NCBI GenBank assembly: GCA_965203355.1
Contig: OZ241889.1
Coordinates: forward strand, 896,001 to 960,000
Origin: Candidatus Latescibacterota bacterium
Lineage (GTDB): Bacteria > Latescibacterota > UBA2968 > UBA8231
Reading direction: 5' to 3'
Length of the DNA: 64,000 bases
The position numbers were made by a program, and so were the translations under genes. Position 1 is the stretch's first letter, and every line of letters starts with the position of its first letter. Below, in pieces: positions 2,053 through 27,974 of this stretch. A model generated the notes under the pieces. That model saw only the letters and a program-made list of their open reading frames with translations, was not told where the DNA came from and did not search any database.

Positions 2053-2412
2053 TGGTGGAGGCGGCGGGAATCGAACCCGCGTCCGAGACCGGTTCTACCG
2101 AAATATGCTACGTGCGTAGTCGGCCTTAATTATCTCGCCTGTTGCGCCGCTGGCCAACGAGCCTCGCAACGAGCCAGCCCGAAAAATCTCGCCCCATTCC
2201 CTCGGGCGAAGGTTTGGGACCAGCCTGCTAAAAGATGACATTGGGGCCGGCCGCGCAGGCTCAACAGACCCCAATGGGCTGCGCTAAGTTTAGGCAGCCA
2301 GAGCGTACGTGTTAGTTTCGTCGCTTAATTTTGTTCCCGATGATTTACGAGGTGTCGGGACCTCGGCACGCAATTTGGGCTTCTCCGACCCCGTCGAAGC
2401 CAAGTCGCCCCC
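2053..2412 (-). ncRNA. ssrA: tmRNA
   Basis: 5' GGGGGCGACTTGGCTTCGAC and 3' GGACGCGGGTTCGATTCCCGCCGCCTCCACCA form an Ala acceptor stem with G3.U plus a T-arm. The tag ORF at 2322-2290 reads (A)DETNTYALAA* after a TAAGC resume context. Confidence 0.97.
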
Positions 2413-22440: not shown

Positions 22441-24360
<1,920 letters not shown>

Positions 24361-24397: not shown

Positions 24398-25390
24398 ATG
24401 GACAAAATTCGCGTGGGATTTATCGGCTGTGGTGGAAATGCCAGCGGGCATATAGGTCGGGTACTCGACATCCCCGAAGCGGAAGTGGTGGCTTTGTGCG
24501 ATGTAGATCCGGCCAGTTTGCAACGCGCCAAAGATCGCAACGCGCGGGCGGCCGAGTTGCCGGAGTTTACCCACTACCAAAAGATGCTGGAGCAAGTCGA
24601 ACTAGACGCGGTAGAAATTTCCACGCCGCACACATTGCACTTTGAGCAGATCGTGGCTGCGCTGGACAAAGGACTACACGTGCTGACCGAAAAGCCGATG
24701 GTTTGCACTGTCGATCACGCGCGTCAAGTTATCGCCAAAGCAAAGGAGGCCGGCAAGATTTTGATGATCTCCTATCAGCGGCACTTGCAGGCGCAGTACC
24801 GCTATGTGCGCAATCAGATCGCGGCCGGGGAACTGGGGGATATCCAGTTTATATCGGCGCTCCAAGACCAGAAGTGGTATCAGGGGACGCTTGGGCTGTG
24901 GCGGCAGCAAATGGCGCTGTCGGGCGGCGGACAGCTCAACGACTCGGGCAGCCACCTGCTGGACATCGCGCTGTGGATGACCGGGCTGGAGGTGGCCGAA
25001 GTGCAGGCCTACATGGAGTATTTCGACTCCGAGGTGGACATTAACTCGGCACTGTCGCTGCGCTTTCGCAACGGCGCACTGGGGACGATTGCGGTGGTGG
25101 GCAACTCGCCGACCAGCGGGATATGGGAGGACATTACCATCTGGGGGACCAAGGCCGTGGTCTATATTCGCCAGGGAGCGGTTTTCTACAAGACGCAGCA
25201 CAGCAACGCGGTGTACGAAGTAAACAACTTGCCCGGCTCGACGACGCCCGACCAGAACTTCATCGACGCGATTCTCGGCCGCGACCAAGTGCAGGTGCCC
25301 CCCGAATGCGGCCTGCGAGTCATTGAATTAACCGAAGCGGCGTGGGCCGCGGCCGCTGGTGGGCAGCCGGTCAAAGTAAAAAGCATTTGA
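24398..25390 (+). CDS. Gfo/Idh/MocA-family oxidoreductase
   Basis: GFIGCG, ISTPH..H, HVLTEKP, GGG.L.D.GSH..D. Confidence 0.92.
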   Translation: MDKIRVGFIGCGGNASGHIGRVLDIPEAEVVALCDVDPASLQRAKDRNARAAELPEFTHYQKMLEQVELDAVEISTPHTLHFEQIVAALDKGLHVLTEKPMVCTVDHARQVIAKAKEAGKILMISYQRHLQAQYRYVRNQIAAGELGDIQFISALQDQKWYQGTLGLWRQQMALSGGGQLNDSGSHLLDIALWMTGLEVAEVQAYMEYFDSEVDINSALSLRFRNGALGTIAVVGNSPTSGIWEDITIWGTKAVVYIRQGAVFYKTQHSNAVYEVNNLPGSTTPDQNFIDAILGRDQVQVPPECGLRVIELTEAAWAAAAGGQPVKVKSI

Positions 25391-25416
25391 CATGATTCTA
25401 CGGACTTTGTCATATT
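25387..25416 (+). promoter_or_regulatory. Sigma70-type promoter for the downstream non-coding unit
   Basis: Perfect TTGACA (25387-92), 18-nt spacer, TGn-CATATT extended -10. Confidence 0.55.
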
Positions 25417-25423
25417 AAAATTT

Positions 25424-25723
25424 AAGACGGGTTCGGGGGTCTAAAGCCTCTGTTGCCGCCCCGCCGAGGCCCGAGGCTACGCGAGCGGGCCAGCCCGGCT
25501 TTGTAATTGGCCGCAACGACGCGCAGAGTTGGAGTATGGATATGAGGCGCGCACAAGCGAAAGGAGGTGGTCCATTGAGTAGTAATTGTACCGCAGGGAG
25601 GTTGATCACTTGATCAACTCCAGGTGATTAACTACCTGGTCAGGAGCATTGTCGCTTCGGCGATATAGCTTCTGAGAGTACAGCCGGGCGCGCCCCACCT
25701 TAGAGGGTGCGCCCGGTTTTTTT
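25424..25723 (+). ncRNA. Candidate structured small RNA / mini-ORF RNA carrying an extended Shine-Dalgarno
   Basis: Promoter upstream, terminator downstream, no long sense ORF. Several hairpins, including C-UUCG-G, and GAAAGGAGGTGGTCCA at 25559-25574. Confidence 0.6.
25682..25723 (+). terminator. Rho-independent terminator
   Basis: AGCCGGGCGCGCCC ... GGGTGCGCCCGGTT stem ending in a T7 run. Confidence 0.85.
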
Positions 25724-25789
25724 GTCTGCGCTGTCCTAAGTTGGTTTCCACGCGGCATTTTTGCCATATTGTCCACGAGGAGGCCGTCT

Positions 25790-26761
25790 ATGAAACGCAT
25801 CGCCAAGCCCGCCGGGGCCTACAACATTTTGGTGGAAGAGGTCGAGGTTCCGGCGATTGCTCCGACCGAGATTTTGATTCGCGCTCAGTGTTCGTTGATA
25901 AGCCGTGGTTCGGAGATTTGGCGGCGCTACGTGCGCGAAGAGGCGATTGATCACCGCATGATGGGCTATTCGCTGGTGGGTCGGGTCGCAGAGGTCGGTG
26001 CGGAGGTCGCGGAGTTCAAAACCGGCGATCTGGTCGCGGCTCTCGCACCGCACGCTGAGTACGCAGCGGTCGAAGTCGTAGCCAGCCAGCACAAGCCGGC
26101 GGTCGTGCGCCTGCCAGCGGGTATGTCGCCCGAAGCGGGTACCTTCTGGCCGCTGGCAACCAGCTCGGTCCTGTGGATGTGGGAGACCGAGGCCGGGCCG
26201 GACGATGTCATGGTCGTCCAAGGGCAGGGTTTAGTCGGTAGCGGCTGTATGCAGGCGGCCAAAGCACAGGGGGCCGGGCGCGTCATTGGGATCGATGCTG
26301 TGCCTTTGCGATGCGACTTGGCGCACGAGTTGGGAGCCGACGCGGTGATAGATGCCAGCAGTGGTGACCCTGTTGCCCAAGTTTTGGAACGGACGGAAGG
26401 CGCAGGTGCCGACATAGTGGTCGAAGCGGTGGGTGGGCGGGCCGGGGCGCGGGCTTTTGCCGAGGCGCAGGACATGCTCAAGCGCGGTGGCCTCTTACAA
26501 GTGCTGGGCCTGTACGAAGACGAGCCCCTGCCGCTCTACTCGGGCAAAATCATGGGCAAGCGCCTCATCGGTAGCTATCTCGACGCCAGTCGGCGGCCCG
26601 AAGGGTCGGCACGTGCGTTAGAACTGCTGGCTGCGGATCAAATCCAATTTGCCAAGATGATTACCCACCGCTTTCCCTACGCCGAGGCTGCCGCCGCTTT
26701 CGACTTGCTCTACCATCGGTTGGGCGAGGCCATGGCGGTGTTGTTAAGGTGGGACAACTAA
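25790..26761 (+). CDS. MDR-family (zinc-binding alcohol dehydrogenase-like) oxidoreductase
   Basis: SLISRGSE, GYSLVG.V, GQGLVG, GADIVVEAVG, ITHRFP; ATG after GAGGAGG. Confidence 0.88.
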   Translation: MKRIAKPAGAYNILVEEVEVPAIAPTEILIRAQCSLISRGSEIWRRYVREEAIDHRMMGYSLVGRVAEVGAEVAEFKTGDLVAALAPHAEYAAVEVVASQHKPAVVRLPAGMSPEAGTFWPLATSSVLWMWETEAGPDDVMVVQGQGLVGSGCMQAAKAQGAGRVIGIDAVPLRCDLAHELGADAVIDASSGDPVAQVLERTEGAGADIVVEAVGGRAGARAFAEAQDMLKRGGLLQVLGLYEDEPLPLYSGKIMGKRLIGSYLDASRRPEGSARALELLAADQIQFAKMITHRFPYAEAAAAFDLLYHRLGEAMAVLLRWDN

Positions 26762-27477: not shown

Positions 27478-27494
27478 GGTGAGGGGTGAGCGGC

Positions 27495-27974
27495 ATGGCA
27501 AGAAAGTACTGGCTCGTCAAGTGCGAATTCGACGAGTGTTCCTTTGACGAGTTAAAGCAGCGGCCGCAAAGCACGGGTTACTGGCGAGGGGTGCGCAACT
27601 ACCAAGCGCGCAATCTCATCCGCGACAGCATGGCAAAGGGGGAGCTGGCGTTCTTTTATCAATCCAGTTGCGCCGAGCCGGGGATCGCCGGAATCGCGAC
27701 GATTACAAGAGCAGGGTACCCCGATCCCAGTCAATTCGACGACCAGCACCGCTACTACGACGAAAAATCCACGGTCGCCGACCCGCGTTGGTTTTCCTTT
27801 GACGTGAAGTGGAAACGCAAATTCAAACGGTTTGTCCACCTCGCCGATCTCAAGGTCAACGACAAGCTCGCCGACATGAAAGTGGTGCAGCGGGGTCAGC
27901 GGCTCTCGATCCAGCCGGTTGCCGAGCAGGAGTGGAGGGAAGTCTGCAAGATGGGCGGCGTTAGCCCGACGTGA
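27495..27974 (+). CDS. EVE domain protein
   Basis: YWLVKCE, W.GVRNYQARN, FFY.S, YPDPSQFD, RLSIQPV. Confidence 0.92.
   Translation: MARKYWLVKCEFDECSFDELKQRPQSTGYWRGVRNYQARNLIRDSMAKGELAFFYQSSCAEPGIAGIATITRAGYPDPSQFDDQHRYYDEKSTVADPRWFSFDVKWKRKFKRFVHLADLKVNDKLADMKVVQRGQRLSIQPVAEQEWREVCKMGGVSPT

Follow-up and report, generated by a model that had tools for sequence, protein, structure and literature searches.

CC2171 (Rfam RF01867) is a small RNA (sRNA) seen as Northern signals in Methylorubrum and supported by covariation; according to its report, neither its role nor a condition that affects it has been identified (bioRxiv 10.1101/2022.01.24.477521). In Bacillus, a strong Shine-Dalgarno (SD) sequence mediates stabilisation of the hbs mRNA by ribosomes (PMC5737220). 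In the Bacteroidetes, the anti-SD is sequestered and most genes have no SD, and a perfect SD at rpsU or rpsR marks the RNA for ribosomes whose anti-SD is free (PMC7797042). The locus described here lies at 25387-25723 of a 64,000-nucleotide (nt) stretch of DNA, referred to as the window, from a Candidatus Latescibacterota bacterium (contig OZ241889.1, positions 896,001 to 960,000). It combines a near-perfect complement of the 16S ribosomal RNA (rRNA) tail with a very short open reading frame (ORF). The region is probably the gene of a stand-alone sRNA of about 300 nt, one member of a Latescibacterota family, that acts through engagement of the ribosome. The centre of this RNA is composed of three elements:

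25559..25574, + strand: SD1, an extended SD that is a 16-nt complement of the 16S 3' end, with its core at 25559-25571
25575..25613, + strand: a mini-ORF of 12 codons, TTG...TGA, encoding MSSNCTAGRLIT*, its frame conserved in homologues
25596..25601, + strand: SD2, an internal GGGAGG within the ORF, at the base of a long hairpin

The element is conserved in relatives. BLAST gave matches in 54/167 Latescibacterota genomes at E <= 0.01, and the distant ones retain just the SD-ORF-hairpin core. A covariance model built from this 98-nt core found the element in 61/150 Latescibacterota genomes, in 60 of these at E <= 2e-5, and each had a single strong match. The original prediction, made from the letters of the window, had staked its reading on such conservation, and a chance origin is excluded because the element is conserved. 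It had also recognised no Rfam family in the RNA. This holds, as the only Rfam family to reach its gathering score on the window is transfer-messenger RNA (tmRNA), found elsewhere in it, and none did so on 10 divergent homologues. The model matched 0/5 genomes when run on one each of Armatimonadota, Poribacteria, Chloroflexota, Leptospirales, and Desulfobacterales, a result that in itself shows nothing. The literature searched holds no description of this Latescibacterota RNA and nothing relevant on sRNAs of Latescibacteria. The element therefore represents an RNA family that had not been described before, spread widely through a candidate phylum that is seen only through metagenomes.

The reading frame of the mini-ORF is kept in every homologue. 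Among 57 distinct homologues, the start was assigned to the first NTG that follows the GGAGG of the SD by 5 nt or more, and the stop to the triplet occupying fixed columns in the hairpin alignment. The distance from start to stop is 27, 30, 33, 36, or 39 nt in 57/57, always a multiple of 3, and the frame spans 9-13 codons. Of the starts, 41 are TTG, 10 are GTG, and 6 are ATG. Between GGAGG and the start lie 7 nt in 37 homologues, 6 nt in 16, and 11 nt in the remaining 4, which belong to one clade. At the fixed triplet stand TGA (52), TAA (3), or TAG (2). The length classes arose through separate whole-codon insertions or deletions (indels), and in one large clade a loss of 1 nt before the internal GGAGG is matched by a gain of 1 nt after it, which restores the frame. 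Start, stop, and frame are kept through substitutions and indels in all 57, as in a translated small ORF, and on this comparison the mini-ORF is very probably translated. The extended SD and its 12-codon ORF, on which the original prediction centered, are borne out as the conserved heart of the RNA.

The encoded peptide is not kept in the same way. The 57 sequences encode 36 distinct peptides. Across the 12-codon class (43 sequences), entropy averages 0.77, 0.63, and 0.54 at the first, second, and third codon positions, with no excess at the third. Because this pattern is the opposite of that produced by protein selection, the comparison shows that the peptide sequence is not under selection. 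The internal GGAGG encodes G-R or R-R in most lineages and G-G in ten sequences, and those peptide letters that are conserved are so because conserved RNA, the internal GGAGG, lies underneath them. Comparative evidence that selection acts on translation itself, and not on its product, is seldom this clear.

The original prediction had also entertained a micropeptide, in which case the RNA would be a small mRNA with a 9-13-residue peptide as the functional molecule. The conservation of frame, start, and stop speaks for this, as does a peptide N-terminus that is mostly M-S-S and a C-terminus that is often T. However, purifying selection on amino acids was not found, given the number of distinct peptides and the lack of a third-position excess. 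Peptide endings such as TGRLIT, LRRSTT, AGGATT, and RRWVV are the conserved GGAGG read in different frames, and the conserved codons coincide with paired or SD bases. A functional peptide is thus very unlikely. Two further ORFs that had been proposed fared no better. A 25-residue version would begin at an in-frame upstream ATG that exists in the window but is absent in 15/50 rows, and a 5-codon ORF at 25610 needs a TTG that exists only if codon 12 ends in T, as it does in 18/43 sequences of the 12-codon class.

SD1, at 25559-25574, reads GAAAGGAGGTGGTCCA and is directly followed by the TTG. It is the sole match to GAAAGGAGGTGRTCCA in the window when up to 2 mismatches are allowed; 0.08 matches are expected, and at least one occurred in 8/100 shuffles. 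The window itself holds no 16S gene, and the 16S 3' end was taken from three complete close relatives, whose 16S genes end ...GGCTGGATCACCTCCTTTCT (also given as ...GCGGCTGGATCACCTCCTTTCTAAGG). From these ends, all 16 nt can therefore pair, with one G.U, in agreement with the complement first proposed from the window alone. The conserved core is the first 13 nt, GAAAGGAGGUGGU, present in 56/57 distinct homologues; the remaining one has GGAAGGAGGUGGU. The base that forms the G.U is a G in 57/57. Because it is never the A of the perfect complement, this invariant G is suggested to serve intramolecular pairing as well. In predicted folds of 28 representatives, the mean unpaired probability of AAAGGAGG ranges from 0.26 to 0.94, and the predictions leave most of the 5' half of the SD unpaired.

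Such long complements are rare in these genomes. The 12-mer AAAGGAGGTGRT has just 3, 4, and 9 occurrences in the three complete relatives, including the 16S gene and this RNA. The 10 further sites, some at small ORFs and others within coding sequence, bear no resemblance to this RNA. In two relatives (loci L191, L192, and L197), 12-nt complements of the 16S tail lie 7 nt 5' of small ORFs; one encodes a hydrophobic peptide of 24 residues, another a 50-residue protein rich in Gly, Ser, Lys, and Asn, and the third a protein of 62 or more residues that begins MGKQHRPGQK. By a crude count that uses longest-ORF starts, an SD-like 4-mer is found 5' of just 12/44 long ORFs in the window. Many of the ATG starts among these 44 ORFs follow A-rich, SD-free sequence, which recalls the Bacteroidetes.

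The SDs and the frame are embedded in a structured transcript with its own signals. The other parts of the gene are:

25387..25416, + strand: sigma-70-type promoter, with TTGACA at 25387-25392, an 18-nt spacer, and TG-n-CATATT ending at 25416
25423..25558, + strand: 5' domain, predicted by folding to form several hairpins followed by an A/C-rich linker up to the SD
25587..25591, + strand: 5' strand of the closing helix, UGUAC, in codons 5-6, predicted by folding to pair with 25678-25682
25600..25633, + strand: long hairpin S2, in which GGUUGAUCACUUG (25600-25612) pairs with CAGGUGAUUAACU (25621-25633)
25597..25639, + strand: alternative fold, with GGAGGUUGAUC (25597-25607) paired to GAUCAACUCC (25612-25621) and CCAGGU (25620-25625) to ACCUGG (25634-25639)
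25640..25675, + strand: hairpin D, UCAGGAGC...GCUUCUGA, with an inner stem capped by UUCG, from folds and alignments
25678..25682, + strand: 3' strand of the closing helix, GUACA, predicted by folding, immediately 5' of the terminator stem
25683..25723, + strand: intrinsic terminator, a G+C-rich stem of about 13 base pairs (bp) and then U7, from the fold

All features named in the original prediction were found where it had placed them. Its promoter, TTGACA/CATATT, agrees with the consensus at 10/12 positions and has a TG before the -10 box. No second promoter-like site occurs in 24800-26300, where shuffles average 0.4. This promoter would place the transcription start near 25423. A box of the type TTGnnn-N15-19-TATATT lies 5' of the element in 21/28 representative homologues (by regular expression), and A/T-rich tracts are visible by eye 5' of the -35 box in several lineages. 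The hairpins it named and the terminator, with its 13-bp stem and U7 tail, appear in the minimum-free-energy fold. A simple terminator scanner listed no terminator at the locus, although the fold shows one, because the loop and bulge fall outside the scanner's rules. A script recognised the terminator in 54/57 distinct homologues, and by eye it is conserved across the alignments with changes on both arms.

The + strand of the RNA region (approximately 25423-25723) folds at -132.6 kcal/mol with z = -3.63, and 0/100 shuffles were as good; the - strand gives z = -2.08. The G.U pairs of S2 and the better z-score point to an RNA on the + strand. The long hairpin S2 covaries. In a structure-blind MAFFT alignment of 39 sequences, 97.6% of cells are paired and 3/13 pairs have changed on both sides; the covariation score was reached by 0/500 shuffles, and slid controls pair at 16-54%. 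In a model-fitted alignment of 59 sequences, 96.4% of cells are paired, with changes on both sides at 7/13 pairs and in 44 cells. Here too 0/500 shuffles reach the score, and slid controls are 21-53% paired. Another register for the lower part of S2 was tried and rejected, being 83.8% paired and weaker than the chosen one. As read from the folds, S2 is present in 25/28 minimum-energy folds of the representatives. The closing helix, by a script criterion, is present in 17/28, and its predicted pairs in other lineages are AGUAC:GUACU, AGUAGUC:GAUUGCU, AUACC:GGUAU, and UUGG:CCAA. Hairpin D is variable and missing in some lineages, two homologues (L108 and L109) among them.

The 5' arm of S2 (25600-25612) comprises the final four codons and the stop codon up to its second base, and the stop codon stands at a fixed position at the top of this arm in all homologues. 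From the 3' end of SD2 to the stop there are 9 nt in 47/57 homologues and 10 nt in 10/57. The end of SD2 is thus 6-7 nt before the last sense codon (6 nt in the window), which is the spacing of an SD to the P-site codon. The codon division of SD2 is xGG-AGG in most lineages but GGA-GGU in 10 sequences. Because it is read in different frames between lineages, it is kept as RNA and not as codons.

These two SDs also bear on a reading in which the RNA is an untranslated protein sponge or an SD-mimic sRNA, with its GGA and GGAGG motifs binding CsrA or C-rich RNAs. The five GGA motifs that suggested a CsrA sponge to the original prediction are indeed present in the window copy, and SD-like and anti-SD-like segments are repeated within the RNA. 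However, the CsrA family PF02599 was found in 0/5 Latescibacterota genomes and was positive in 3 control genomes known to have CsrA. Just two GGA motifs, both of the SD type, are conserved, and the second of them lies in a stem, unlike the many loop-borne GGA motifs of a CsrB/RsmZ-type sponge. A sponge would also leave the conservation of start, stop, and frame unexplained, and this reading is highly improbable. In sum, the stand-alone structured RNA, its conservation, and the extended SD with the 12-codon ORF hold from the earlier interpretation, while the 25-residue ORF, the 5-codon ORF, the micropeptide, and the CsrA sponge do not.

The alternative fold is the minimum-energy fold in 3/28 representatives. 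Its CCAGGU:ACCUGG hairpin is 99.3% paired with no change on both sides and is neither supported nor refuted. A switch between S2 and the alternative hairpins is possible on these models. Such a switch, together with a leader ORF and a terminator, would suit a cis-acting leader, that is, a ribosome-dependent attenuator or riboswitch, of the alcohol-dehydrogenase-like gene that starts at 25790. In the window and its nearer relatives, the element has the same orientation as this gene and lies 67 nt 5' of it. In many lineages, however, the 3' gene is convergent or unrelated, which is not the context of an attenuator. In the window, the stop (25611-25613) lies about 70 nt before the terminator stem (25683), with hairpin D in between, and by eye most homologues are similar. 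The attenuator is not supported because the stop is too far away for a terminating ribosome to affect the terminator stem, and we consider it quite improbable.

The neighbors of the element change between lineages. The flanking GFO/IDH/MocA oxidoreductase gene (24398-25390) has relatives that are 90-95% identical in metagenome-assembled genomes (MAGs) labelled Latescibacterota and, for some, Gemmatimonadota. By nhmmer, the element stands beside this gene in 21/67 syntenic loci, and the alignment of the syntenic loci is near-identical across the promoter, SD, ORF, hairpins, and terminator. The 5' neighbor is metG or the oxidoreductase in several lineages; others are a PhyH-HEAT protein, an S-layer-like protein, ParA, an amine oxidase, and an amidase. 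On the 3' side, the clade of the window has the Zn-dehydrogenase-like gene, and elsewhere DAP epimerase, NAD epimerase, or GH95 is found. The 3' gene is convergent in at least five lineages, where it is URO-D-like, a sigma-54 regulator, a GFO-family gene, or a Na+/H+ antiporter. This comparison of loci shows the RNA to be an independent unit with its own strong promoter and terminator, single copy per genome, with changing neighbors.

Several other features of the surroundings can be recorded. A methionyl-tRNA synthetase gene (22462-24360) is found two genes 5' of the RNA, and in one distant lineage (L105) metG is directly 5' of it. A gene for an EVE-domain protein lies 3' of the RNA at 27486-27974. 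Between the terminator and the ATG at 25790, the window has a box, TTGCCATATTGTCC, at 25760-25789, followed by GAGGAGG. The box recurs as TTGCAATATTGTGCGCG 3' of the terminator in more distant homologues (L099-L104), and it may be a promoter or operator of the dehydrogenase-like gene. The full-length tmRNA gene is at window 2053-2412 on the - strand (RF00023, 198.9 bits, model positions 1-374).

Copies of the RNA from relatives are present in RNA libraries. Six metatranscriptome runs contain part of the stretch, and four of them, from four studies, were aligned; their labels are sponge, coral, and two coded organisms. The contigs of these runs, 60-225 nt in length and 90-99% alike, fall on 25427-25703. 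In one run, word depth reaches several thousand, and the RNA is one of few in the phylum with high depth in RNA libraries. For the transcript that had been predicted, this supports the presence of relatives' copies among RNA, but contigs cannot give its strand, ends, or level. None of the aligned contigs covers 25300-25425 or 25720-25900; such gaps prove nothing and are not used as evidence. One contig has 30 unaligned bases at its 5' end, and two loose ends fall at 25472 and 25675.

The order of these parts suggests how the RNA could work. The long SD would capture a 30S subunit through up to 13-14 bp with the free 16S tail. Translation of the mini-ORF would then melt both the closing helix and the long hairpin. 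Once the ribosome reached the stop codon, its anti-SD could pair with SD2, as it does with an SD in an initiation complex, and this pairing should delay departure of the ribosome and hold the hairpin open. From these steps, the output would therefore be ribosome occupancy, refolding of the RNA, or both, and these, rather than the peptide product, would be what matters. The "ribosome-binding or ribosome-sequestering" sRNA of the original prediction fits this anatomy. The partner of the RNA would be the ribosome itself, and to our knowledge there is no established bacterial example of an RNA class with this partner.

What the ribosome engagement is for can be proposed more tentatively. The likeliest of the roles considered, though still of fairly low probability, is that the RNA holds or titrates ribosomes with a free anti-SD, in a phylum that seems to use few SDs. 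A role tied to the pool of SD-competent ribosomes is attractive because of the count of 12/44 and the perfect-SD case of the Bacteroidetes. A slightly more doubtful possibility is that translation stabilises or switches an RNA whose effector part lies elsewhere. The 5' domain is where such a part could be sought. It contains a hairpin at approximately 25518-25553, immediately 5' of the SD, and a block ACGACGCGCAG...GGTTG...GCGCG is common to the clade of the window and two further groups; outside these the domain is replaced or expanded. In the predicted fold of the window, strand 25476-25492 base-pairs with a segment that runs from the 3' part of the SD through the start codon to codons 2-3, but this pairing of the 5' domain with the start region is inconsistent across lineages and is not claimed.

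A related rival reading is a regulatory sRNA that is stabilised or has a dual function. Its effector would be a part that pairs with other RNAs or binds protein, for which the 5' domain is a candidate, and the SD and mini-ORF would serve mainly to hold a ribosome that protects the RNA from RNases. The domain is large, structured, and partly conserved between groups, and the RNA seems abundant in libraries. There is also precedent in B. subtilis, where ribosomes initiating at a strong SD block RNase J1 on the hbs mRNA (PMC5737220). On the other hand, the most conserved parts (SD1, the start, SD2, and the stop in its hairpin) are all related to the ribosome, and the loops and 5' domain differ between lineages. 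Moreover, SD1 is 75-190 nt from the 5' end and not near it. A protected regulatory sRNA of this kind is unlikely, though it deserves consideration.

Several points weigh against the favored reading of an sRNA that acts by engaging ribosomes. Ribosome binding and translation rest on sequence comparison, and the sink role is itself a deduction that requires a sufficient copy number of the RNA. The 5' domain, at 75-190 nt and partly conserved, lacks a place in a ribosome-loading story and may carry an effector function. The start codon varies greatly in predicted accessibility from lineage to lineage (0.01-0.92). The counts of covariation from 59 sequences lean towards the structure of the model. 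The statement that SDs are few rests on 44 crudely defined starts in one window. The RNA evidence consists of assembled contigs, which could in principle originate from DNA. Finally, the hosts are uncultured, and function is not readable from phenotype.

Compared with systems in other bacteria, the Latescibacterota RNA resembles the STAB-SD and strong-SD mRNAs of Bacillus (cry3A and hbs) in that a 16S-complementary sequence holds a ribosome and the bound ribosome, not a product, acts. STAB-SD elements are located at the 5' end of long mRNAs and protect the coding sequence downstream. The Latescibacterota transcript, in contrast, has no downstream gene, and its SD drives a conserved mini-ORF. 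The Bacteroidetes and Latescibacterota belong to the same superphylum, and the few SD-like words in the window (12/44) resemble SD usage in the Bacteroidetes. The Bacteroidetes case, however, is a protein-coding mRNA that regulates its own product, unlike the Latescibacterota RNA. In 5/5 Latescibacterota genomes (L200-L204), rpsU (bS21) has AGGAG, AAGGAG, or GAGGAG 6-9 nt before its ATG.

The leader-peptide attenuators of erm and trp share a short translated ORF that has its own SD, another SD hidden in a hairpin, and mutually exclusive hairpins that a ribosome can toggle. In the Latescibacterota RNA, no cistron follows in the transcript, the genomic context is not conserved, and the internal SD precedes a sense codon and the stop, not a start.

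6S RNA is an abundant sRNA that mimics the normal template of a machine, which escapes by making a very short product. The Latescibacterota RNA could be the ribosome counterpart of 6S RNA, an abundant decoy that catches 30S or 70S particles with a free anti-SD and so buffers or senses the SD-competent pool, with CC2171 as the same device; this idea is speculative and rather unlikely. Capture would occur through the 13-bp SD helix at the start and the second SD at the stop, and the particles would be released only once the 9-13-codon frame had been translated and terminated. The likeness is an analogy only, as 6S RNA binds RNA polymerase, not ribosomes, and has a different architecture. The 6S RNA model, RF00013, had no match on the window and matched 0/3 of the complete related chromosomes, though it is insensitive, with 5/14 control genomes positive. 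The term 'ribosome sponge' was not found in the literature searched on the topic.

The nearest known RNA is CC2171, the one Rfam family with any resemblance, which the original prediction had not noted. It was the best sub-threshold Rfam match to the locus at E <= 10, with 25.1 bits against a gathering score of 75, which is short of membership. On the 10 divergent homologues, RF01867 scored 37.4, 27.4, and 26.2 bits on 3 and gave nothing on 7, and the Latescibacterota model in turn gave each of the 18 CC2171 loci it was run on a score of 10-18 bits. Of 151 Pseudomonadota genomes, 18 had matches to RF01867, 19 in total, and a single match exceeded the cut-off. In 17/19, CAACAAnC-GAAAGGAGGUGAUCC (one with GAAAGGAGGUGCCC, GCCC) is followed by GTG, ATG, or TTG 6-7 nt after GGAGG. 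In these 17, an ORF of 14-25 codons comes next, which opens with M-S and closes with one or another of the three stop codons, and hairpins and a terminator follow. By eye, early codons of CC2171 are complementary to bases before the terminator, such as CATTGCC with GGCAATG. The window GAAAGGAGGUGGUCCA-UUG aligns to positions 9-27 of the CC2171 model with high posterior, and it corresponds to the beginning of the Rfam consensus, GAAAGGAGGUGAUCC-GUG/AUG, save for the G that forms the G.U. A helix analogous to that of CC2171 is predicted in the window, and in the cmscan alignment to CC2171 it contains several non-canonical pairs.

A subgroup of CC2171 (L174, L179, L181, and L183) encodes similar 18-residue peptides, MSR..LE..VGTAWEV..., and 3/4 of them have GGGAGG or AAGGAG 3-5 nt before the last sense codon, echoing SD2 of the Latescibacterota RNA. 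Six CC2171 peptides of 23-25 residues matched 0 families each in NCBIfam and Pfam. The literature search on CC2171 found one paper; PMC5521070 does not mention it, and PMC4117421 yielded nothing bearing on it, though the name itself was not among the terms sought there. The literature on Caulobacter ribosome profiling and on extended SDs and small ORFs yielded nothing on this RNA, and supplements may list CC2171 as translated.

Both RNAs have an A/C-rich leader, a super-SD, a start 6-7 nt further on, a short ORF, and a terminator. They differ in ORF length (9-13 codons in the Latescibacterota RNA and 14-25 in CC2171) and in the SD, which has an invariant G.U in the former and a perfect A-U in the latter. 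The internal SD before the stop, the long hairpin that holds the stop, and the large 5' domain belong to the Latescibacterota RNA; only some CC2171 members have an SD-like word ahead of the stop. CC2171 is from Alphaproteobacteria, whereas the flanking genes of the window and the homologues are from Latescibacterota MAGs. As judged from their sequences, the two appear to share a design but not the score of one family, whether by common descent or by convergence. RNAs of the CC2171 kind suggest a class of super-SD mini-ORF RNAs, and the comparison gives a first handle on CC2171, an orphan sRNA. Because CC2171 exists in Caulobacter and Methylorubrum, which are cultivable and genetically tractable, the hypothesis is testable at the bench.

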